Of a stretch of DNA of 64,000 nt, positions 694 to 64,000 are shown piece by piece. The stretch is from Candidatus Poribacteria bacterium (GTDB lineage Bacteria > Poribacteria > WGA-4E > WGA-3G). The DNA is taken from positions 1,312,001-1,376,000 of the forward strand of contig CAXXUA010000005.1 in NCBI GenBank assembly GCA_963663765.2, written 5' to 3'. The notes under the pieces are model-generated. The model was given only the letters and a program-made list of their open reading frames with translations, ran no database searches and was not told the origin of the DNA. Each line of letters begins with the position of its first letter. Position 1 is the stretch's first letter. The translations under genes and the position numbers were made by a program.

Positions 694-1024
694 ACGGGGT
701 CTCGTCGCACAGAATATGGATGATATTTTCAAGGCTCACAAATCCCCATCTATTTGTAGGACGAGGTCACCGTACCCCCCATTGTTTTCGCACACCAGAT
801 TGGTAAGGTATAGAGACCTGGGAATGCTCTATAGTATTCATACCCGGGGAATGATATACGCGCATTGATACCGTTGATTTCTTGATTTGAAAATCCCTGT
901 TCAGACATCTGTACAGAAACTTTCAATAAATCCAAACAGTCCCTAAACCTATTGGAAATTCCAATAACCTAACACAAAAAACACGCCTATCCTCACCCCC
1001 ACATAATGTATAATAGACTATAGT

Positions 1025-8411: not shown

Positions 8412-8878
8412 TTCGGTACTCCTGTCAACATATTTTCTTCATTTTTTATACCATTTCTGTTTTCTTATACCCAAATAAAGTGATTTGTCCTGCTAAGTGA
8501 GCGGTTAGGAAATCTCACCTACCGCCAAAAAAAGATAAATCCTGTTAATTTGGAATTATAACATTTCAAAAAAATTGATGTCGTATTACAAGTTTTTGTG
8601 AGGTATAATCTAATGTGGCACAAACTAACAGTTTGTGCCACATAGAAGAGACACTATATATTAACAATGGTATTAGATGTCATTCGTGATTGATACCCAT
8701 TATGTAACACTATTTTTGTATGTACACAGAAACTCGTCTTACAATAGTACAGCATATCTCATAAATGTGATCTTGTTGAAATTCACAAAATCATGTGTCT
8801 GGTAAATCGGGTTTAGAAACCCCTCCTACCATTTATGAGATAAGTTGAAATTGAAATTGAAATATGGATAATGAATAA

Positions 8879-11644
8879 TCAATTTTCAGATTTTTCTTCA
8901 GACACTTCAGGAGTATCATTGGTTTCCGTGTCTTCAGAACTTTCAGTTTCTTCTTCAGAGGGTTCTGTTTCCGTATCTTCAGAACTTTCAGTTTCTTCTT
9001 CAGAGGGTTCTGTTTCCGTATCTTCAGAACTTTCAGTTTCTTCTTCAGAGGGTTCTGTTTCCGTATCTTCAGAACTTTCAATTTCTTCTTCAGATGTCTC
9101 GGGTTCATCGGTACTGTCAACAACCTGAGTAACTTCAGTTTCTTGTGAAACATCGTTGTTTTCAGTATCGTCTGCAACCTCAGTGGTTGTGGCAGCATCT
9201 TCAGAAACTTCTGTTTCTTGAGTGTTTTCAGTAGTTTCTTGACTTTCAGCATCCTGAGCATTAATTAGATTTTCAACATTGTTTTTTCCCATTTCCTGTT
9301 TGAGCAGAGCCCCCATAATGGTTTCCTCTTGTTCAACAGGTTTGGGTTGTCTCTGTTCGCGTTTTCGAACAGGCCGTTCACGTTGTTGTTGTCGTTGTCG
9401 TTCTTGTTGGTCCTGATTTGGGGTTGTTGCGCGTTCTTGGTCTGCGATAGCAGCTTTCAAACTTAAACCTATACGTCTACCCTTTGGATCAAGATTTATG
9501 ACTTTGACATCCAATTCATCTCCTACAGAAACGACCTCTTCTGGTCTTTCAATTCGTCTGTCTGCAATTTCAGAGATATGTATGAGTCCATCAATGCCTT
9601 CTTCAAGTTTTGTGAATGCGCCGAAACTAGTTAAATTGACGATCTTTCCACGAACGACAGACCCAACTTTATATTTTTCTGGTACTGTGTCCCATGGATC
9701 CGGTTGTGTTTGCTTTAGTCCTAATGAAACGCGTCGTTCTGAAGCATCAATTTGTAGGACAACGACTTCAACTTCATCGCCTTCTTTCAGCATTTCTTGT
9801 GGGTTACTGCCACGGTCAGTCCAAGATAGGTCTGAAGTATGAATGAGTCCATCAATTCCTTCTTCAATTTCAACAAATGCCCCAAAGTTGGTAAGGTTGC
9901 GAATACGTCCGGCAATCTTTGTTCCAACAGGATATTTTTGTTCTAATAGTTCCCATGGGTTTGGTTGTAATTGTTTAATTCCTAACGAAATCCGTTTATC
10001 CTCTTTTGAGATTTCAAGGACAATTGCTTCAATTTCATCACCTTTGCTTACGATTCGGGAGGGGGCAACGTTGCGACGGGTCCACGCCATTTCAGATACG
10101 TGGATCAATCCTTCAACAGCTTCTTCAAGTTGAACGAAGACACCGTAATTGACGATATTTACGACAGTTCCGCTAACTTGTGAGCCGATTGCGTATTTTT
10201 CTTCAACATTTTCCCAAGGATCATCTGTCTTTTGCTTCAAGCCTAAGGAGATTTTCTCGGTCTCTTTACCGATAGCGATGACTTGAACTTCAATTTCTTG
10301 ATCAATTTCAACAATTTCGGAGGGATGGTGTATACGTTTCCACGCCATATCGGTTTTATGTAATAACCCATCAACACCACCGAGGTCAACGAATGCTCCG
10401 AATGCGGTGATATTTTTGACGGTACCGGTTATGAGTTGACCGACTTCAAGCGTTCTCAGGACTTCTTCTTTTTTCTCTGCCATTTCAGCTTCTAACCATG
10501 CGCGGCGAGACAAAACGATGTTATGTCTGCGTTTGTTCATGCTGATGATCTTCATCTGAAACGTTTCACCGATGTACTGGTCAAGATTTTGTATAGGTCG
10601 TAATTCTACTTGTGATGCGGGTAAGAAACCTCGCAAAGTACCTATATAAACACGAAGTCCGCCTTTAATTCGTTCAGTTACCTCACCTTCAACGGGTGAA
10701 CCACTATCAAAAGCTTGGGATATCTCGTCCCAGATCAGTGTTTGATCCGCTATTTTCTTAGACAGGTTAATTTGTCCTTCTGAGTCTTCCCTATTTACGA
10801 TGAATACGTCAATTTCATCACCGACTTTTACTGTTGGCAAATCATTTTCATCTTTTTCAAACTCAGATGCGTGAATATACCCTTCAGATTTGAATCCGAT
10901 GTCAATCATGACTTCATCGCGGCTTACATCTACGACTGTTCCTTTGACGATTTCTCCATCAGTGAAGGCTTTGAGTGAATTGTCATAAGCTTCTTCAAGC
11001 GATTCTTGGCTCATGGTAGCATCTTGTTCATCAGAAGTTTCACCTTGTATTTCGGTAGTCTGAGGTGTTTCTTCAGATGTAACATCGGGTGTATCTGTAT
11101 CGACTGTTTGCTGTATTTCTTCAGAAGTGACATCGGGTGTGTCGGTTTCAGTTACTGATGATGGGGTATCTTCTTCGGATTCTGATGATGGGGTATCTTC
11201 TTCGGATTCAGTATCTGTTGTATCATTTTCGTTTGTAACAACTTCAACTGTTTCTTCAGATTCAGACTCAGATGTTTCGGTTTGGACCTCAACAGGATGG
11301 TTACTTTCCTCAGACTCAGCAGATTGGACAACTTCATCTGTTATTTCTGTCTGTACTACTTCTTCAGCTGCTTGTATCTCCTGTTCTGCATCGGTTTCTT
11401 GAGGAGATGATTCAGCTTCATTGCTTTCACCTTCTGTTTCCTGTTCTGCATCGGTTTCATGAGGAGATGATTCAGCTTCATTGCTTTCACCTTCTGTTTC
11501 CTCAGTGGGATCTTGGTCTTCGTGTGCTGATGTTCCTTGTTCGGTGACTTCTTCGTTTGCGACTTCAGTCGAATCCTCAACTTGTTGTTTTTCTTCTTCC
11601 ACTTCAACGGTGGAATCGTCTGTATGGGTATGTACGTTGATCAT
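8879..11644 (-). CDS. rpsA: 30S ribosomal protein S1 with long acidic N- and C-terminal extensions
   Basis: Six S1 domains (DIGFKSEG, FLPASQV, FGAFVDLGGVDGLLH, RISLGIKQL and so on) at about aa 225-735. Confidence 0.93.
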   Translation of the reverse strand: MINVHTHTDDSTVEVEEEKQQVEDSTEVANEEVTEQGTSAHEDQDPTEETEGESNEAESSPHETDAEQETEGESNEAESSPQETDAEQEIQAAEEVVQTEITDEVVQSAESEESNHPVEVQTETSESESEETVEVVTNENDTTDTESEEDTPSSESEEDTPSSVTETDTPDVTSEEIQQTVDTDTPDVTSEETPQTTEIQGETSDEQDATMSQESLEEAYDNSLKAFTDGEIVKGTVVDVSRDEVMIDIGFKSEGYIHASEFEKDENDLPTVKVGDEIDVFIVNREDSEGQINLSKKIADQTLIWDEISQAFDSGSPVEGEVTERIKGGLRVYIGTLRGFLPASQVELRPIQNLDQYIGETFQMKIISMNKRRHNIVLSRRAWLEAEMAEKKEEVLRTLEVGQLITGTVKNITAFGAFVDLGGVDGLLHKTDMAWKRIHHPSEIVEIDQEIEVQVIAIGKETEKISLGLKQKTDDPWENVEEKYAIGSQVSGTVVNIVNYGVFVQLEEAVEGLIHVSEMAWTRRNVAPSRIVSKGDEIEAIVLEISKEDKRISLGIKQLQPNPWELLEQKYPVGTKIAGRIRNLTNFGAFVEIEEGIDGLIHTSDLSWTDRGSNPQEMLKEGDEVEVVVLQIDASERRVSLGLKQTQPDPWDTVPEKYKVGSVVRGKIVNLTSFGAFTKLEEGIDGLIHISEIADRRIERPEEVVSVGDELDVKVINLDPKGRRIGLSLKAAIADQERATTPNQDQQERQRQQQRERPVRKREQRQPKPVEQEETIMGALLKQEMGKNNVENLINAQDAESQETTENTQETEVSEDAATTTEVADDTENNDVSQETEVTQVVDSTDEPETSEEEIESSEDTETEPSEEETESSEDTETEPSEEETESSEDTETEPSEEETESSEDTETNDTPEVSEEKSEN

Positions 11645-11772: not shown

Positions 11773-11864
11773 CTATAATCTTTTTAGGGAGGATTATTCA
11801 GTATTAGGTATTTTAGCTGTTTCCTGAGAAAATCGGGGCAGGGAAATCAAGTAATCAAAGGAAT

Positions 11865-12528
11865 GATGAAGATTCATTTATTAATTGGGTTATATATATT
11901 TTTCCACCGGTAGGCGTGCTTTGTAAGCGCGCTCTTGGGACCTGATGTGCCATTTATTAATTGGGTTATATATATTTTTCCACCGGTAGGCGTGCTTTGT
12001 AAGCGCGCTCTTGGGACCTGATGTGCCATTTATTAATTGGTTTATAAACATTTTTCCACCGGTAGGCGTGCTTTGTAAGCGCGCTCTTGGGACCTGATGT
12101 GCCATTTATTAATTGGGTTATATACATTTTTCCACCGGTAGGCGTGCTTTGTAAGCGCGCTCTTGGGACCTGATGTGCCAGCGCGCATACAAAGCACCAA
12201 ATCAAGTAATCAACGGTATGAATCATGGAGCATGCCACACGCGCATGCTGCTTAAGGTATTCCCCGCCTACCGTGGCTGGATTAGGAGAATTACACTAAG
12301 TATTTTTTATATTCATAATGCCTTTTGGTATTCTTCGGGTTGTTCCTACCGCGGGGTTTCTTTTTTTCAGAACATTAGGAAAACTAAATTACCTGGGATT
12401 TCTCACAATGTTTTTTATGAAGCGGGATTTACGCAGTTTTCTTGATTTAATCAAGTTGTAGGGTTATTTCTTTAAAATCACACCTAAGGGAAATATAAGA
12501 TTACCGAATTAGTAAATTAATCTTCATA
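11865..12528. mobile_element. Composite MITE-like element (shell K, TGAAGATT...AATCTTCA) carrying a 4 x 76 bp tandem array
   Basis: Terminal inverted repeats shared with 42270-42567 and 63843; internal family B palindrome. Confidence 0.65.
11875..12178. repeat. Tandem array, 4 x 76 bp
   Basis: Units start at 11875, 11951, 12027 and 12103; each contains GGTAGGCGTGCTTTGTAAGCGCGC and they differ by only a few nt. Confidence 0.95.
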
Positions 12529-27415: not shown

Positions 27416-27600
27416 GGTGTGTAAAGCTTTTTGCGTACAGAATCGCGGATTACGCGGATTATGCGGTTAAAATGTCCGCATGAGAATTTATCGCAGAGAA
27501 TAAGCGTTTTCTAAGCAACACGCTCAATTGCAGATGTATAATCCGTGTAATCCGTGTAATCCGTGATTCTGACAACACCATGCCAAGAACTTTACACACC
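27416..27600. mobile_element. MITE-like shell I (GGTGTGTAAAG...CTTTACACACC) enclosing inverted 9-bp repeat tracts
   Basis: CGCGGATTA repeats on the left and ATCCGTGTA repeats on the right; sister copy at 48261-48511. Confidence 0.75.
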
Positions 27601-33294: not shown

Positions 33295-33452
33295 CAGGAC
33301 TTACGCACCCAACGGTAGGCGCGCTTTGTAGGCGGGGAATGCCAAAAGGCATTCATACCGTTGATTTGGCGCTGGAAACCGAAAAAATGCTGAAAATTAC
33401 ACCATTTTCGTCAAAATTCTTCATCAAATCATGAAAACTGCGTAAGTCCTGA
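33295..33452. mobile_element. MITE-like shell G (CAGGACTTACGCA...TGCGTAAGTCCTG) containing family B interrupted by mini-element F
   Basis: 13-bp TIR; uninterrupted sister copies at 45592-45713 and 49915-50034. Confidence 0.8.
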
Positions 33453-42257: not shown

Positions 42258-42580
42258 ACATATCGTCCTTAATGAAGATTAATTTATTAATTCGGTAATA
42301 AATATTCCTACACGGTAGGCGGGGAATGCCTAAATGGCATTCATACCGTTGATTTCTTGATTTGGTGCTTTGTAAGCGCGCCACCCGATTGTAGTCGTGC
42401 TTTGTAAGCGCGCCACCCGATTGTAGTCGTGCTTTGTAAGCGCGCCACCCGATTGTAGTCGTGCTTTGTAAGCGCGCTATTGGAACTTGATGTGCCAGCG
42501 CGCTTGCAAAGCACGACTACCAGGGTGGGTTAGATAAAATTACCTAATTTATTTATTAATCTTCATACGGGACTAAAGAG
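42258..42580. mobile_element. Shell K inserted into a family C palindrome; carries F and a 3.5 x 32 bp tandem of family B
   Basis: CATATCGTCCT[TAATGAAGATT...AATCTTCAT]ACGGGACTAAAGAG; 32-bp units at 42365, 42397, 42429 and 42461. Confidence 0.8.
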
Positions 42581-45457: not shown

Positions 45458-45771
45458 GTGCAGTTAGGAAATCGCACCATAGACGTCAATTTAAGAAAAA
45501 GTGTTGGTGTTTCTCTTGTGGGAGGGGTTTTCAACCCCGATTTGAGAGGAAAAGCGCATATAATCGGGGTTGAAAACCCCTCCCACAAGAGCAGGACTTA
45601 CGCACCTAACGGTAGGCGCGCTTTGAAAGCGCGCTGGAAACCAAAAAAATGCTGAAAATTACACCATTTTCGTCATAATTCTTCATCAAATCATGAAAAC
45701 TGCGTAAGTCCTGAAGATGTCAAAATCCTTAAATTGACGCTTAGTGTGCGGTTAGGAAACCTTACCTACCG
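45458..45771. mobile_element. Nested element D > J > (A + G > B)
   Basis: D-like ends at 45458 and 45747; J TIRs at about 45484 and 45740; A doublet 45514-45590; G shell 45592-45713. Confidence 0.8.
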
Positions 45772-47860: not shown

Positions 47861-48253
47861 GGGTGTGTAAAGTTTTTGCACAAACTGCACATTCTCCATT
47901 GTAGAGCGAAATCAAGAAATCAACGGTATGAATGCCATTTAGGCATTCCCCGGGTCTCTGTGCCCCGCCGCAACTGATTAAATGAGAGATTGCGGGCACA
48001 GAGACCCATAGGTGTCAATATAAGGAAATATTGTTAATATCAACCATACTCTTCAGTCCCGTAGGGACGATATGTTTATAGAAAACAAGTACCCTTCCCA
48101 GTTCTTTAGTCCCGTAGGGACGATATGTTTATTCTTCTATGTCGTTCCTACGGAACTCAAGAGAGGGTGATTACACCTATCTATAAACATTGCGTCCCTA
48201 CGGGACTAAAGAGAACAAAAGTTTGTACCTCTGTGCAAAAACTTTACACACCC
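47861..48253. mobile_element. Shell I element carrying F, a GGGTCTCTGTGCCC doublet and several family C palindromes
   Basis: 22-bp TIR GGGTGTGTAAAGTTTTTGCACA/TGTGCAAAAACTTTACACACCC. Confidence 0.8.
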
Positions 48254-48260
48254 AAGGGAG

Positions 48261-48511
48261 GAGTGTGCAAAGTTTTGGTATACAGAATTGCAGATTTCGC
48301 GGATTACGAGGATTTCGCGGATTAGGCTCGGAATCGCGGATTAAGCGGATTACACGGAATACGCGGAGAAGATACCTGCAATAGATCGTATTGTTTAGTT
48401 AACGTTTATTCTATGCAATACAACCAAATGCAGAAATCTTATCCGCGTATTCCGTGTAATCTGTGCAATCCGTGATTCTGACAACACACATGCCAAATGC
48501 TTTACACACCC
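48261..48511. mobile_element. Shell I element with inverted 9-bp repeat tracts
   Basis: Homologous to 27416-27600, with a longer CGCGGATTA tract. Confidence 0.75.
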
Positions 48512-49914: not shown

Positions 49915-50034
49915 AGGACTTACGCAAAGACGGTAGGCGTGCTTTGTAAGCGCGCTGGAAACCCATAAAAATACTGATAATTACATCATTTTCAGCTTAT
50001 TTCTTGATTAAATCAAGAAAACTGCGTAGTCCTG
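49915..50034. mobile_element. Shell G with family B palindrome
   Basis: CAGGACTTACGCA...TGCGTAGTCCTG. Confidence 0.75.
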
Positions 50035-50077
50035 TTAAGTACACTATTTTTTAGATTTGATGCTGGGAGATAAAGTG

Positions 50078-50758
50078 ATGCAGAAAAAGATACGAGCTGC
50101 GCCTACTATAATCTATCCGGAATCGGATGGGGAACCTATGGCAGAAACAGATATACACCGTGACCTGATGATAGATTTCATTCAGGTATTGAAGCATCAT
50201 TACCGAACTGTGAGTGATGTTTATGTGTCTGGTAACCTATTCTTGTATTATGTAGAGGGGAATCCAAGGAAAGTTATCTCACCAGATGTGTTCGTAGTTT
50301 TTGGAGTTGAGAAGAAACAACGGAGAACCTATCGGACTTGGGAGGAGGAGCGGACTCCCGATTTTGTGTTAGAGGTGGCAAGTCCGAAGACCTTTAAAAA
50401 CGATATTGGCGGAAAAAAGGAACTTTATGCATCAGCGTTAGCGGTGAAAGAGTATTTCATTTACGATCCGTTGGGACAGATTATTCCGAGTTTTATTGGG
50501 TGGCGTCTTGTTGATGGTGTGTATCAAGAGATAGATTTCGTGAATGATCGTTTACCTTCAGAAGTATTAGAGTTAGAGTTAGGTGAAAAGGGTGAAGCGT
50601 TACGTCTGTATGACCCGAATAGATCGGTATGGTTGGAAACTTCTCCTGAACGCGCAGAGAATGCAGAAGCACGCGCGCAAAGTGCTGAAGAAAAACTCGC
50701 TAATGCGATGGCAGAAATAGAACGTTTGCAGAGATTGTCAACTTCACATCTAAGTTAA
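50078..50758 (+). CDS. Uma2-family (DUF820) PD-(D/E)XK endonuclease, copy 1
   Basis: YPESDGEPMAET..H, SPDVFVV, PDFVLEVASP, VKEYFIYDP; coiled-coil tail. Confidence 0.9.
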   Translation: MQKKIRAAPTIIYPESDGEPMAETDIHRDLMIDFIQVLKHHYRTVSDVYVSGNLFLYYVEGNPRKVISPDVFVVFGVEKKQRRTYRTWEEERTPDFVLEVASPKTFKNDIGGKKELYASALAVKEYFIYDPLGQIIPSFIGWRLVDGVYQEIDFVNDRLPSEVLELELGEKGEALRLYDPNRSVWLETSPERAENAEARAQSAEEKLANAMAEIERLQRLSTSHLS

Positions 50759-50841
50759 AATATTTATCGTAATTCTGAGTTTCTAATGTGCCTACTGCTG
50801 GAACGTAATTTGTAAGATATTTGATGCTGGGAGATAAAGTG

Positions 50842-51585
50842 ATGCAGAAAAAGATACGAGATGCGCCTACTATCGTCTATCCGGAATCGGATGGGGAACC
50901 TATGGCAGAAACAGATATACACCGTGACCTGATGATAGATTTCATTCAGGTATTGAAGCATCATTACCGAACTGTGAGTGATGTTTATGTGTCTGGTAAC
51001 CTATTCTTGTATTATGTAGAGGGGAATCCAAGGAAAGTTATCTCACCAGATGTGTTCGTAGTTTTTGGAGTTGAGAAGAAACAACGGAGAACCTATCGGA
51101 CTTGGGAGGAGGAGCGGACTCCCGATTTTGTGTTAGAGGTGGCAAGTCCGAAGACCTTTAAAAACGATATTGGCGGAAAAAAGGAACTTTATGCATCAGC
51201 GTTAGCGGTGAAAGAGTATTTCATTTACGATCCGTTGGGACAAATTATTCCGAGTTTTATTGGTTGGCGGCTTATTGATGGCGTATATCAAGAGATAGGT
51301 TTCGTGAATGATCGTTTACCCTCACAAGTATTAGAGTTAGAGTTAGGTGAAAAGGGTGAAGCGTTACGTCTGTATGACCCGAATAGGTCGGTATGGTTGG
51401 AAACGTCTCCTGAACGCGCAGAGAATGCAGAAGCACGCGCAAAGAGTTCAGAAGCACGTGTAGAACAGGAAGCAAACGCACGTAGAAATGCTGAAACACG
51501 CGCGCAAAGTGCTGAAGAAAAGCTTGCTAATGCGATGGCAGAAATAGAACGTTTGCAGAGATTGTCAACTTCACATCTAAGTTAA
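50842..51585 (+). CDS. Uma2-family endonuclease, copy 2
   Basis: Near-identical to copy 1, plus three extra heptads in the tail. Confidence 0.9.
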   Translation: MQKKIRDAPTIVYPESDGEPMAETDIHRDLMIDFIQVLKHHYRTVSDVYVSGNLFLYYVEGNPRKVISPDVFVVFGVEKKQRRTYRTWEEERTPDFVLEVASPKTFKNDIGGKKELYASALAVKEYFIYDPLGQIIPSFIGWRLIDGVYQEIGFVNDRLPSQVLELELGEKGEALRLYDPNRSVWLETSPERAENAEARAKSSEARVEQEANARRNAETRAQSAEEKLANAMAEIERLQRLSTSHLS

Positions 51586-51668
51586 AATATTTATCGTAAT
51601 TCTGAATTTCTAATGTGCTTACTGATGGAACATAATTTGTAAGATATTTGATGCTGGGAGATAAAGTG

Positions 51669-52400
51669 ATGCAGAAAAAGATACGAGCTGCGCCTACTAT
51701 AATCTATCCGGAATCGGATGGAGAACCTATGGCAGAAACTGATATACACCGTGACCTGATGATAGATTTTATTCAGGTTTTGAAGCATCATTACCGGAAT
51801 GCAAGTGATGTTTATGTGTCTGGCAACCTATTCTTGTATTATGTAGAAGGGAATCCGAGGAAGGTTATCTCACCAGATGTGTTCGTAGTTTTTGGTGTTG
51901 AGAAAAAACAACGGAGGACCTATCGGACTTGGGAGGAGGGATGTACTCCCGATTTTGTGTTGGAGGTGGCAAGTCCAAAGACCTTTAAAAACGATATAGG
52001 CGAAAAAAAGGAACTTTATGCATCAGCGTTAGCGGTGAAAGAGTATTTCATTTACGATCCGTTAGGACAGATTCTTCCGAGTTTTATTGGGTGGCGTCTT
52101 GTTGATGGTGTGTATCAAGAGATAGATTTCGTGAATGATCGTTTACCTTCAGAAGTATTAGAATTAGAGTTAGGTGAAAAGGGTGAAGCGTTACGTCTGT
52201 ATGACCCGAACAGGTCGGTATGGTTGGAAACGTCTCCTGAACGTGCAGAGAATGCTGAAACCCGTGCAAAACAGGAAGCAGTTGCCCGCCGAAGTGCTGA
52301 AGCACGCGTGGAACAAGAAGCAAACGCACGCAGAAATGCTGAAGAAAAACTCGCAAATGCTATAGCAGAAATAGAACGTTTGCAGAGTTTGTCAACTTGA
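51669..52400 (+). CDS. Uma2-family endonuclease, copy 3
   Basis: Near-identical core with a different heptad order. Confidence 0.9.
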   Translation: MQKKIRAAPTIIYPESDGEPMAETDIHRDLMIDFIQVLKHHYRNASDVYVSGNLFLYYVEGNPRKVISPDVFVVFGVEKKQRRTYRTWEEGCTPDFVLEVASPKTFKNDIGEKKELYASALAVKEYFIYDPLGQILPSFIGWRLVDGVYQEIDFVNDRLPSEVLELELGEKGEALRLYDPNRSVWLETSPERAENAETRAKQEAVARRSAEARVEQEANARRNAEEKLANAIAEIERLQSLST

Positions 52401-55031: not shown

Positions 55032-55838
55032 ATGAATCAAAAATCCGCTGTAAATACAATTCAGCACTTTCAATTAGATGGCAAGGTAAGTCTTGTAAGT
55101 GGTGCGAGTCGTGGCATTGGTAGAGCAATGGCAGAAGGACTTGCAGGTGCAGGATCAGACCTTGTCATTGCTGGCAGAGAAATATCTACACTTACCCCTA
55201 TTGCTGAGCAGATCACCAAAGAAACCGGTAGTACTGTCCTTCCAATTCAAGCAGATGTCGGTAATCTGCAAGAAATTGAATTGCTCGTTGAGCAAACTGT
55301 CAAAACCTTTGATAGACTTGATGTGTTGGTGAACAACGCAGGTGTAAACGTCCGAAACCCCGCACTGGAATTCACAGAAGAAGATTGGGACTTTGTGACA
55401 GATGTTAATTTGAAGGGTGCGTTCTTTTTGGCAAAAGCCTGTGGAAAAGTCATGGAAAAACAGGGTGGTGGGAAGGTCATCAACACTTTATCATTAACCT
55501 CTGCGATCGGACTGCCGACAAGTGTGGCATACACGGCAGCGAAAGGTGGACTCCTGCAACTCACAAAACTGCTTGCTGTGGAATGGGCAGAACACAACAT
55601 ACAGGTCAATGGGATTGCCCCCGGCTTCATTCGGACGGAGATGACTGCCCCCGCACGCGAAGATAACCGCAACGAATGGATACTCAATCGCACGCCTGCA
55701 TATCGTTGGGGAGAACCTGAAGACCTCGCAGGTCTGACGATTTTCTTCGCATCAAACGCATCCGATTTCGTTACGGGTCAGATGGTATTTGTTGATGGCG
55801 GATTTATGGCGGGTAGCGACTGGAGAAAACGCACATAA
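55032..55838 (+). CDS. SDR oxidoreductase (gluconate 5-dehydrogenase/KduD-like)
   Basis: SGASRGIG, NNAG, YTAAK, NGIAPG, VDGG. Confidence 0.9.
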   Translation: MNQKSAVNTIQHFQLDGKVSLVSGASRGIGRAMAEGLAGAGSDLVIAGREISTLTPIAEQITKETGSTVLPIQADVGNLQEIELLVEQTVKTFDRLDVLVNNAGVNVRNPALEFTEEDWDFVTDVNLKGAFFLAKACGKVMEKQGGGKVINTLSLTSAIGLPTSVAYTAAKGGLLQLTKLLAVEWAEHNIQVNGIAPGFIRTEMTAPAREDNRNEWILNRTPAYRWGEPEDLAGLTIFFASNASDFVTGQMVFVDGGFMAGSDWRKRT

Positions 55839-55839
55839 T

Positions 55840-56067
55840 ATGGATACCCAGCCCTCGCTTTCTGCTTTGGAACAAGCGGAAAAAATCCTTGAAAAGTTCA
55901 ACATTGAAAGTGCTGCCCTATACGATCATAAACCTGTTTTAAGAATACGGGTATCCGATTCTGAGTTTGCACGTGTGCTTGAACTGCGCACTACACTCGT
56001 TGAGGAACTTAAACCCACCGGCTTTCGGTTCATCGCCCTTGATCTTGACTCAAATACGGAAATATAG
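55840..56067 (+). CDS. Small protein resembling the C-terminal domain of LarE
   Basis: AEKIL...H..VLRIRV...F.RVL..R..LVEELK..GFRFIALDL; ATG 1 nt after the SDR stop. Confidence 0.55.
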   Translation: MDTQPSLSALEQAEKILEKFNIESAALYDHKPVLRIRVSDSEFARVLELRTTLVEELKPTGFRFIALDLDSNTEI

Positions 56068-56179
56068 ATTGCATGTAGGTTCCTTCCGATTCCAATAGAT
56101 TCACTTCGCTATCACAACTAAAAAATGATTTGAAATTGTTAATTTAATACGATATAATGAAAATGTCTGATTATCGTCT

Positions 56180-56272
56180 AATACCAAATTAACGTAATTT
56201 ATCTTTTTCCAACGGTAGGTGCGGTTTCCTAACCGCACACTTAGCAAGACGACTCACGTTAATTCGGTATAA
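56180..56272. mobile_element. Short MITE (TAA-TACC...GGTA-TAA) with a family D palindrome, between a promoter and its gene
   Basis: TACCAAATTAACGT/ACGTTAATTCGGTA TIR; GGTAGGTGCGGTTTCCTAACCGCAC core; TTGAAA-17-TATAAT at 56130-56158. Confidence 0.7.
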
Positions 56273-56301
56273 CCATAATATAATTATAAGGAGTCTAAAC
56301 T

Positions 56302-56556
56302 ATGGCTGATACAGTCAAATACATCCCGTTCCAACGCGTAAAAGATTGGAAAGTTGGCGATAGGATTGTTGTAGATGGAAATCCAGGAAAAATTCGTGAT
56401 ATTGTTGAATTCAATAATCCATCGGGAACCGGTGAAACAATCGCATCCATCGGTGTGGTGTATGACAATGAACCCGGCGTAATTAGGCTTGTTGAATTTG
56501 ATTTTCATCAGGTTAAATTAGATCGTGAAAACCAATCTATTAGTCTCTCCAAATAA
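56302..56556 (+). CDS. Hypothetical small beta-rich (SH3/KOW-like) protein
   Basis: Strong AAGGAG RBS; WKVGDRIVV..GKI pattern. Confidence 0.65.
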   Translation: MADTVKYIPFQRVKDWKVGDRIVVDGNPGKIRDIVEFNNPSGTGETIASIGVVYDNEPGVIRLVEFDFHQVKLDRENQSISLSK

Positions 56557-56643
56557 ACAAATTTCCCCACCGTTTTCAATCTGTAAATGTTCTTTCCTAT
56601 ACTAATAGTGTTTCATGCGCAAACGTCTATTACTCATAACAAG

Positions 56644-57117
56644 TAATACCAATTCAAATAAATCTTGTCTCATTAAGGAATTCTACTGTTTACTGGCAGG
56701 GGGTTACTCTCTTCGGTAGGAGCGACCTCCCGGTCGCGACCGTGATGTCGCTCCTACCAGATTTCCGCTGCTAATGAGACATTATCACATGAAAATGGTA
56801 TAATACCAATTCAAATAAATCTTGTCTCATTAAGGAATTCTACTGTTTACTGGCAGGGAGTTACTCTCTTCGGTAGGAGCGACCTCCCGGTCGCGACCGT
56901 GATGTCGCTCCTACCAGATTTCCGCTGCTAATGAGACATTATCACATGAAAATGGTATAATACCAATTCAAATAAATCTTGTCTCATTAAGGAATTCTAC
57001 TGTTTACTGGCAGGGGGTTACTCTCTTCGGTAGGAGCGACCTCCCGGTCGCGACCGTGATGTCGCTCCTACCAGATTTCCGCTGCTAATGAGACATTATC
57101 ACAAGAAAAGGGTATAA
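56644..57117. repeat. Head-to-tail array of 3 x 157 bp MITE-like units
   Basis: Units start at 56644, 56801 and 56958; each has TACCA...TGTCTCATTA/TAATGAGACA...GGTA ends and a GGTAGGAGCGAC...GTCGCTCCTACC core. Confidence 0.95.
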
Positions 57118-57279
57118 TTAGAATTAGTTTACACAGTAGTGATCCGTAGGAAATTTACAGTTAGTAAGATATACTCTTTCAAATATCTATATTAACGAGT
57201 TGTGCTAAATAATTATATGTTAATCATTGTTTCACATAAGCATGACGTTTTGCAGGTGTCCTTCATAGTTTGAAACGAT

Positions 57280-57540
57280 CTTCAGTCCCGACAAATGCCA
57301 TACGGGGAATGCCTAAATGGCATTCATACCGTTGATTTGGCGCATTTGGCGTTGATTTGGTAGGGACGATATGTTTATAGAAAAACGTCATAGTACATCC
57401 TCTTTAGTCCCGCCAAATGCCATACGGGGAATGCCTAAATGGCATTCATACCGTTGATTTGGTAGGGACGATATGTGTGCATTATAAACCTAATATATGT
57501 AAAACTTTGTTAACAATAGGTTAACTGGTACAAGTCGTAT
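57280..57540. repeat. Two family C palindromes, each interrupted by F-type inserts
   Basis: AGTCCCG[insert]TAGGGACGATATG occurs twice; intact form at 48055-48075 and 48108-48128. Confidence 0.8.
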
Positions 57541-57860
57541 TCTTTGTATCACTCCATTTATTTAAAACTTTGTTTGACTATACCAGATGGGTTTTTCCTA
57601 TCGTTGAATACCGACACACAACACATGCAGTCGGTAAACATCGTTTTGTATTGGGAAGTTTATTTTTAGGAGTGTTGGCTAATTTTGTCTATGATCTGAT
57701 AAAAGTAATACTCTAAAAGACTGAAACTTATTGGTTTTTTTGAACTATCTTTTGTAGAATGACCTTGCAAAAAACTTGATTTTCACGGCAAGGTGTGGTA
57801 TACTTTTAAGAGATACATGCCCTTTTTTTGAGCACGGATAGGAAAGAAGCAAGGAGACAC

Positions 57861-63827: not shown

Positions 63828-64000
63828 CGCTCTTTAGTCCCTAATGAAGATTAAAAAATACTTTGGGTAATTCTACTAATCCGTCTACGGTAGGCGGGGA
63901 ATGCCTAAATGGCATTCATACCGTTGATTTGGTGGTTTGTCCGCGCACCCCCCAACTGCAGGCGTGCTTTGTCCGCGCCCCCCCTCCTGTCCCCCACCTG
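63828..64000. mobile_element. Left part of another C > K > B > F composite, cut by the window edge
   Basis: TAGTCCC-TAATGAAGATT, GGTAGGCG[F]TGGTTTGT; same order as 42258-42400. Confidence 0.7.

Follow-up and report, generated by a model that had tools for sequence, protein, structure and literature searches.

The window analysed here is a 64,000-nt stretch of Candidatus Poribacteria DNA (G000:C5:1312001-1376000), where G000 denotes the source genome of 6.35 Mb in 15 contigs. At eight places it carries a short repeat, F, which consists of a 7-bp hairpin (GAATGCC/GGCATTC), the 4-nt spacer ATAC and the constant tail CGTTGATTTGG, with a typical unit of 36 nt. The sequence-only reading of the window had listed eight copies, each directly after CG, and had interpreted F as a minute non-autonomous unit that invades repetitive extragenic palindromic elements (REPs). 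Indeed, all eight copies are present: the 13-nt tail seed ATACCGTTGATTT matches each of these places with 0-1 mismatch, the 21-nt hairpin GGGAATGCCTAAATGGCATTC has five exact matches in the window against 0 expected, and CG immediately precedes the element in 8/8 cases.

The window also contains empty forms of several host repeats, i.e., the same repeat without F (Table 1; the sign ^ marks the insertion point). Two of the proposed filled/empty pairs were as claimed. [quoted passage not shown] The third pair was right in its empty member (AGTCCCG^TAGGGACG at 48055-48069) but not in its filler, which at 57284 and 57406 is a sister element, E2, with F lodged in the E2 loop. The form of E2+F with a 20-nt deletion was matched for 41 elements genome-wide. 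For the copy at 47909-47950, the empty form fits offsets -1 and 0.

Table 1 Copies of F in the window and empty alleles of their host repeats
Feature	Position	Strand	Context
Two-hairpin array	820..888	+	Hairpin module with ATACCCG at its end (820-846), followed by diverged F bearing one extra octamer (847-888)
Expanded F, 68 nt	12197..12264	-	Second hairpin AGCATGC...GCATGCT in loop; in H1 REP after GGTAGGCG
F copy, 35 nt, loop AAAA	33335..33369	+	After GTAGGCG in REP-like hairpin of 158-nt MITE (33295-33452)
F copy, 44 nt, one extra CTTGATTT	42322..42365	+	In H1 REP GGTAGGCG^TGCTTTGTAAGCGCGC
Empty MITE allele	45592..45713	+	Site between 45631 and 45632; without exactly the 33335-33369 bases
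F copy, 42 nt, ends GATTT without GG	47909..47950	-	In palindromic repeat GGGGCACAGAGACCCG^CGCTCTACAATGG
Empty palindrome allele AGTCCCGTAGGGACG	48055..48069	+	
Empty H1 REP allele GGTAGGCGTGCTTTGTAAGCGCGC	49932..49955	+	
E2 with F (57305-57340) in loop after CATACG	57291..57360	+	Inside palindrome AGTCCCG^TAGGGACG
E2 left part + F (57427-57462)	57413..57462	+	E2 20-nt right part lost between two identical tails
F copy, 36 nt	63897..63932	+	In H1-like REP after GGTAGGCG

F is a discrete, oriented insert

Depending on how they are counted, the source genome holds about 420-590 copies of F: the tail seed occurs 594 times with at most 1 mismatch, and in 428 of these cases a hairpin stands at the standard distance. 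To locate the ends of the element, we joined the two flanks of a copy (12+12 nt or 11+11 nt) and looked for an exact match of this empty-site probe in the genome. Exact empty sites were found for 180/424 standard copies with 24-mer probes and for 218/316 GG-ended arrays with 22-mer probes, confirming the precise insertion that had been proposed. The piece removed is the whole 36-nt unit GGGAAT...GATTTGG or, equally, G+GGGAAT...GATTTG, an ambiguity of at most 1 nt (dominant junction offsets (0,+2)/(-1,+1), i.e., 36 nt), and there is no target duplication beyond a possible single G. Removal of the hairpin alone yielded an empty match in just 2/175 cases. The boundaries, whose variation between copies had been named as a sign against a discrete element, agree to within 1 nt in the GG-ended arrays with an empty counterpart; arrays without the GG end (104/420) gave an empty match in only 26/104 cases, and in these 26 the boundaries were shifted by 1-2 nt.

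The dinucleotide 5' of the element is CG in 358/424 standard copies, 357/424 have A at position -5, and CG also precedes 106/122 copies at loci of other genomes. Since two REP contexts fit only the reading in which the insert begins with G after C, the apparent preference for CG is partly F's own G. These data show that F is a discrete, oriented unit located 3' of C(G), without inverted terminal repeats or target duplication. The terminal inverted repeats and target-site duplication that characterize MITEs are absent from F; unlike F, the resident insertion sequence (IS) of the DDE type has inverted repeats and an 8-9-bp duplication.

The statement that F splits other palindromic repeats was borne out in at least eight unrelated host contexts of the source genome. 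They include the H1 REP (GTAGGCG^TGCTTTGTAAGCGCGC), an H1-like hairpin in the MITE, the E2 loop, two other REPs of the GTAG type and heptamer arrays. F can also be its own host, the second copy following ATACCCG or standing in tandem. Four more hosts were found in relatives: GGGAACTCCG^ATTCCC, another heptamer array, GCAGAATACCATACG^CGTATTCTGC and CGCTGACGAGGCG^...CCTCGTCAGCG. The window has heptamer arrays of its own at 27440-27580 and 48285-48487 (type GCGGATTA / AATCCGC); such arrays host F elsewhere.

Anatomy of F and its sister elements

F starts with GGGAAT, its hairpin begins 2 nt from the 5' end, and the standard unit has a single hairpin. The 3' part is a 15-nt tail (spacer ATAC included) that ends in CGTTGATTTGG and is followed by 0-5 extra CTTGATTT octamers: none in 360 tails, one in 172, two in 32 and three to five in 15. 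GG then follows in 398/579 of these tails. The constant part of the tail starts with CGTT, and the GTAG motif belongs to the host REPs. When F is folded as single-stranded DNA, the 7-bp stem closes a loop of 4-5 nt and the 15-nt tail stays unpaired; the hairpin has a folding energy of -7 kcal/mol (z -2.7 to -3.6). Two-sided changes within the stem (G-C to A-T in 20 copies, C-G to T-A in 28) outnumber one-sided changes at the same two pairs (12 and about 10 copies), but the former may represent just two inherited events.

The tail is not confined to the F hairpin. Three different self-complementary stems, CCAAATGC, TCAGAAGC and CCGAATGC, bear the identical tail directly 3' of the stem, and these sister elements, too, are placed after (T/C/A)CCG. 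One of them is E2, composed of CCAAATGC-CATACGC-GCATTTGG and CGTTGATTTGG. Furthermore, 41 genome copies form a class with 43-nt spacing, in which a second hairpin is nested in the F loop, and multi-hairpin arrays, (hairpin+ATACCCG)n+F, occur in the source genome. Extra octamers, one or more, are present in 64/68 two-hairpin forms versus 102/343 one-hairpin forms. We considered whether the two-hairpin form arose by insertion of F into F at the internal CG. This model predicts ACCG directly followed by GGG, and GG between the tails, whereas ACCCG followed by GGG, and C, were observed; the total length (72 nt) fits, the sequence does not. Readings of F as an integron attC site, an IHF site or a terminator were set aside as apparently poor fits to the sequence.

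At eight places of the source genome (e.g., C6:317059, C5:1162767) we observed palindromised F heads of the form GGTAGGCGGGGAATGCC-loop-GGCATTCCCCGCCTACC, in which the 5' half of REP+F is mirrored to give a long perfect hairpin without a tail. Symmetric forms with the tail on either side (CCAAATCAACGGTATGAAT...ATTCATACCGTTGATTTGG) also occur.

F has been gained independently in different lineages

F was detected in 37/37 sampled genomes of the genus, at 1-466 copies per genome, G000 being the richest. The sister genus has it in 18/36 genomes, mostly in 1-2 copies (maximum 37). No copy was detected in four further genera of the family (7 genomes), in other families of the order (16 genomes) or in a viral contig collection. 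Public contigs containing an F 20-mer (at least 84 loci) all come, among the matches listed, from Poribacteria or from metagenome-assembled genomes (MAGs) without a taxon label. F words also occur at high depth in 4 sequencing runs of 3 studies. Presence in every genome of the genus and high depth in four runs rule out an adapter or assembly artefact, which the sequence-only reading had kept in mind. These four runs are short-read contig sets that end at repeats, and no contig in them bridges an F site; one read-contig joint skips 47909-47951, but its sides are short, and it may derive from other copies of the host repeat.

The coding DNA of the nearest relatives is only 74-89% identical, yet near-perfect F copies exist in all 37 genomes of the genus, and each of these relatives has perfect ones by the tens to hundreds. 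Individual genomes have private loop variants: TTGAT in G024, TAAAC, TCAAT and CAAAT in G001, ATTAA and TAAAG in G017. The closed genome G024 has 12 perfect TTGAT-loop copies within 107 kb (G024:C1:4358269-4464976).

To follow single sites, we compared the intergenic region orthologous to window positions 55838-57828 across eight relatives. The source genome has E2+F twice in this region, and in G015 a GTAG REP is occupied by F. A heptamer-type repeat is filled with a two-hairpin F in G002 and empty in G022; no F was present in 5/8 relatives (G017, G019, G043, G010, G007). Near the ortholog of the gene adjoining position 33335, no tail was found in the 7 relatives examined. F has been gained independently in different lineages and is interchangeable between hosts. 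The lineage-specific subfamilies and the non-orthologous sites suggest mobility; therefore, F very probably is, or recently was, a mobile unit.

Candidate movers of F

F is too small to encode anything and, if it moves, is moved in trans. The explanation we favour, tentatively and at slightly below even chances, is that F is a hairpin-plus-tail nano-element that is inserted whole and moved in trans, most likely by an HUH-type enzyme. According to this model, the ~36-nt unit would enter DNA whole, in one orientation and without target duplication, and would land directly 3' of a C(G) that a different palindromic repeat carries in its loop or stem. The reaction would be a single-strand, hairpin-guided cut- or copy-and-paste catalysed by a Y1-type enzyme resembling the REP-associated tyrosine transposases (RAYTs), and after insertion F would multiply mostly by riding on its host repeat. 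HUH handling is suggested by two traits: F is inserted 3' of a short motif without duplication, and a constant distance separates its hairpin from the 3' cut. Once the strand is folded, pairing between the flanking CG and the CG that opens the tail could bring the left junction to the base of the stem, with the right one 9 nt beyond; a single hairpin could present both junctions. Indeed, in the predicted fold the flanking CG of E2 and the first CG of its tail add two pairs to the stem, and F pairs in the same way across a small bulge.

We searched for the gene of such an enzyme. The source genome has six Y1_Tnp loci, four of which are IS200/IS605 elements (TnpA with TnpB) and two RAYT-like genes. 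One RAYT-like gene, at C4:621598-622074, lies amid GTAGGAG... REP arrays, and the other, cut by the contig end, amid H1 arrays; the latter, at the end of contig C10 (25098 to end), is presumably the H1 RAYT truncated by the assembly. A Y1_Tnp match was obtained in 27/31 genomes of the genus, and a C4-type RAYT is present in 22/31 but unrelated to F abundance.

Several observations weigh against the HUH model. Flanking by F, the sign of a mover that the sequence-only reading had proposed to look for, was seen at none of the six Y1 loci of the source genome, and F-like ends are absent from the four TnpA+TnpB copies and from about 22 TnpB-only copies in the same genome. In six relatives, too, the RAYTs have GTAG REPs of their own on either side, and the loci contain no F hairpin. 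Genomes G001, G010, G024 and G041 gave no Y1_Tnp match and hold 96, 109, 131 and 35 F copies, respectively, among them 27-55 perfect copies each in G001, G010 and G024. F has one hairpin, not two as at the ends of IS200/IS605, in minor contexts its 3' end is shifted by 1-2 nt, and the flanking dinucleotide does not covary with the CG of the tail, save for one CA/TG case in a relative. Lagging-strand targeting, as in IS200/IS605, predicts a strand bias; F orientation showed no clean link to replication direction as judged from GC skew in 100-kb windows (Spearman -0.23, p 0.11). Finally, owing to hitch-hiking on host repeats, copies of F do not count as independent insertions. The absence of Y1 is not decisive, since near-perfect GTAG REPs also persist without a RAYT in G024 (153 copies) and G010 (77 copies).

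A comparison of orientation and GC skew in 50-kb windows gave a Fisher p of 7e-5 for copies that are not independent. Orientation is regionally coherent and does not simply flip at dnaA. This gene lies at G000 C5:1282439-1282924, about 30 kb upstream of the window, with no clear GC-skew switch there; in this genome, the direction of replication can hardly be read from GC skew.

An IS110-type mover, the other enzyme that had been suggested, found no support: PF01548 matched in 0/5 genomes while the controls matched, and the junctions share at most 1 nt, short of the 2-nt core expected of IS110 elements. Resolvase matches were limited to G000 and G001, with none in G024, G010 and G017, and G024 has no detectable Y1, IS110 or resolvase gene. 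Y2_Tnp matched in 0/5 genomes, but the control search was silent as well, so this result is uninformative. Genes bracketed by two tails in the source genome were 60 ordinary-looking open reading frames (ORFs) without a candidate among them, none of the orphan head-tail pairs brackets a transposase, and the multi-copy DNA of this genome (about 22 TnpB-only elements, several DDE IS, three ORFs without Pfam match) has no F ends. Thus, of the trans-mobilised HUH/Y1 unit that had been proposed, the lack of duplication and the lodging in REPs held, whereas a Y1/RAYT or IS110 mover is unsupported. That the mover is a Y1/HUH enzyme is in our view possible but somewhat doubtful.

Only four TnpA-bearing IS200/IS605 copies stand alongside ~22 TnpB-only copies in the source genome. 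The latter are 1.43-kb elements (C2:189515-190954 and about 21 other places) that encode OrfB_IS605 with a Cas12f1-like TNB domain and no TnpA, and have the conserved ends TTATCAAGAATCACGAC...GGGGAGTATGTCAG.

Alternatively, F may be mobile but moved by something outside the known duplication-free transposase families, either an enzyme that has escaped recognition or a conserved DNA enzyme of the host that acts on hairpins, and the same machinery might underlie the small dispersed repeats of cyanobacteria. We regard this as unlikely. In its favour, no Y1, IS110 or Y2 match was obtained in G024, G001 and G010, resolvase is lacking as described above, F is present throughout the genus regardless of transposase content, and in the source genome no multi-copy gene has F ends and no F-bracketed gene stands out. 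Moreover, REPs of the CGTC type have no known transposase according to Di Nocera et al. (PMC3733652). However, this is an argument from absence in genomes that are MAGs, 92-97% complete, its Y2 component has no value given the silent control, and GTAG REPs, too, persist without RAYT in the same genomes. Nor was a candidate gene for a new mover found.

Multiplication of F together with its host repeats

Most copies of F lie inside other repeats, as had been claimed: in 412/420 arrays the genome contains at least one of the flanking 11-mers five or more times, and in 339 it does so for both. Nesting reaches three levels, with a palindrome containing E2 and E2 containing F. The palindrome AGTCCCGTAGGGACG occurs genome-wide in 598 empty copies, 48 copies with E2 and 57 with E2+F. 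Left halves of H1 are empty in 1047 cases versus 260 filled by F, MITE+F composites number about 14 copies with 96-99% identity over the whole MITE, and 36 cases of tandem F-F were counted. Since many copies share one composite context, copy number greatly overstates insertion events, and independent insertions of F are far fewer than its copies. The designation of F as a hyperparasite of REPs is overstated, as is its copy count, many copies being one amplified composite of host and F.

The H1 REP (GTAGGCGTGCTTTGTAAGCGCGC, at most 2 mismatches) has 1352 copies in the source genome versus 0-13 in four relatives and is a species-specific REP burst of G000. Examples in the window lie at 49932-49955, 11799-12178 and 42365-42520.

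These composites could also be read without any mobility of F itself. F would then be a mosaic module, comparable to those of REPs and bacterial interspersed mosaic elements (BIMEs), that reached a small number of hosts through recombination, template switching or repair of hairpin breaks and later spread only through amplification of the host repeat, gene conversion and tandem duplication. The position of 412/420 arrays in other repeats, the identical composites (57 of palindrome+E2+F, and MITE+F at 96-99% identity) and the location of 260 F heads in a REP that is itself present in 1352 copies are what this explanation expects, and the 36 tandem F-F cases and the multi-hairpin, multi-octamer arrays point to slippage or recombination. 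We nevertheless consider it quite improbable. Across species, at least 12 hosts of unrelated sequence have F with identical 36-nt boundaries, microhomology at the junctions is at most 1 nt, the 5' C(G) is steady in independent genomes (106/122), and the 404 F copies of G017 stand beside only 13 H1 REPs, which speaks against pure hitch-hiking.

The idea that F is a host-selected motif under purifying selection (a site that is structural or bound by a protein, or a segment of a small RNA) with merely incidental nesting is very improbable: near-perfect copies in all genomes of the genus despite 74-89% coding identity, the exclusion of F from ORFs (49/652 tails in long ORFs, which cover 77% of the genome) and its enrichment in divergent intergenic regions (173/604 intergenic copies, such regions being ~12% of all) would agree with it, but species differ widely in copy number (1 to 466), the sites are not orthologous, orientation is independent of the direction of neighbouring genes (180 same, 183 opposite), and Rfam has no family match in the window.

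Other repeats of the window and the source genome

Apart from F and its hosts, the source genome contains a 1.46-kb IS (C2:165876-167335, about 12-19 copies) that is bounded by the inverted repeats GGGTGTGTAAAGTTTTTG..., duplicates 8-9 bp of its target and encodes a 461-aa protein without Pfam match. Short derivatives of this IS (tgtgcaaaaactttacacacc) are scattered beside F copies, and remnants lie in the window near 47960-47990. In the window, three tandem copies at 50055-52400 (period 764-827 nt, 94-99% identical, each with a 233-254-aa ORF) are a recently duplicated gene array. A 157-nt tandem repeat of 3 copies lies at 56644-57125, just upstream of the F/E2 pair, and a 45-nt in-frame repeat within a coding region at 8877-9146.

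Significance and comparison with known systems

F behaves like one of the smallest mobile elements known, and its size lies at the lower limit for what can be recognised and moved as a unit. The data set is unusually clean, with a constant tail, interchangeable hairpins and hundreds of exact filled/empty pairs, and the range of 1-466 copies among species of one genus, several with closed genomes such as G005, G017, G021, G022 and G024, makes profiling for the mover and oligonucleotide cleavage assays feasible. F-type repeats also affect the assembly and annotation of Poribacteria MAGs, as short-read contigs break at them. It is conceivable, though we would not expect it, that the elements made of a hairpin and CGTTGATTTGG form a new class of site-specific mobile DNA, about 34-36 nt in size, whose machinery for insertion after C(G) in repeats that form hairpins lies outside the known Y1, Y2, IS110 and serine/tyrosine recombinases; if so, they would represent, together with the small dispersed repeats of cyanobacteria, a widespread unrecognised way of moving bacterial 'nano-transposons'. 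No literature on REP-like or F-like repeats in Poribacteria was found among the matches listed.

F lacks the defining features of REP/RAYT systems, IS200/IS605 derivatives, MITEs and IS110 elements, although it shares traits with several of them. IS200/IS605 elements insert 3' of a short motif without duplication and have a subterminal hairpin ~10-15 nt from the 3' end. Like these elements and the related palindrome-associated transposable elements (PATEs), F is oriented, has no inverted terminal repeats, makes no duplication and lies 3' of a short motif, and its hairpin stands at a comparable distance from the 3' end. It differs in having a single hairpin where IS200/IS605 elements have one at each end, and the ends and targets of the resident IS are unrelated to it. 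Rolling-circle elements (IS91, Helitron-type) also insert without duplication at a fixed di- or tetranucleotide target, have a 3' hairpin and form tandem or read-through arrays. F shares the duplication-free insertion at a fixed site, the hairpin 10-15 nt before the 3' end and the tandem arrays, but has no defined 5' end motif common to its sister elements.

REPs and the REP doublets forming hairpins (REPINs), which are GTAG-tagged and associated with RAYT transposases (Bertels and Rainey 2011, PMC3116915; Di Nocera et al. 2013, PMC3733652), resemble F as short intergenic hairpin repeats with hundreds of copies and an abundance that varies among related species. The latter work reports REPs inside other palindromes and a CGTC superfamily without an associated transposase. 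F, however, has neither a GTAG nor a CGTC tag, has a long unpaired 15-nt tail and no cognate RAYT, and is an insert within REPs instead of a REP doublet; the GTAG REPs that host it in the source genome do have RAYTs.

The closest precedent for F is found in the small dispersed repeats (SDRs) of cyanobacteria, in particular SDR5 inside HIP1. Eight such families, SDR1-8, were reportedly described in Nostoc and related cyanobacteria by Elhai and colleagues in 2008. SDRs are reported to be 21-27 nt long, to be embedded in heptamer arrays and minitransposons, and to be nested in one another. To our knowledge, their movement has not been explained since that time. F, too, is tiny, dispersed, hairpin-forming and non-coding, has no known transposase and is nested precisely without duplication. 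At the level of description there are also differences: F occurs in Poribacteria, is longer (35-44 nt, against 21-27 nt for SDRs), and has a constant 11-nt tail common to different hairpins as well as a variable octamer array. According to Elhai (2015, PMC4390886), SDR5 interrupts the palindrome HIP1 precisely after its third base (GCG^ATCGC). Insertion after GCG that splits a palindrome is the same geometry as that of F in GTAGGCG^.

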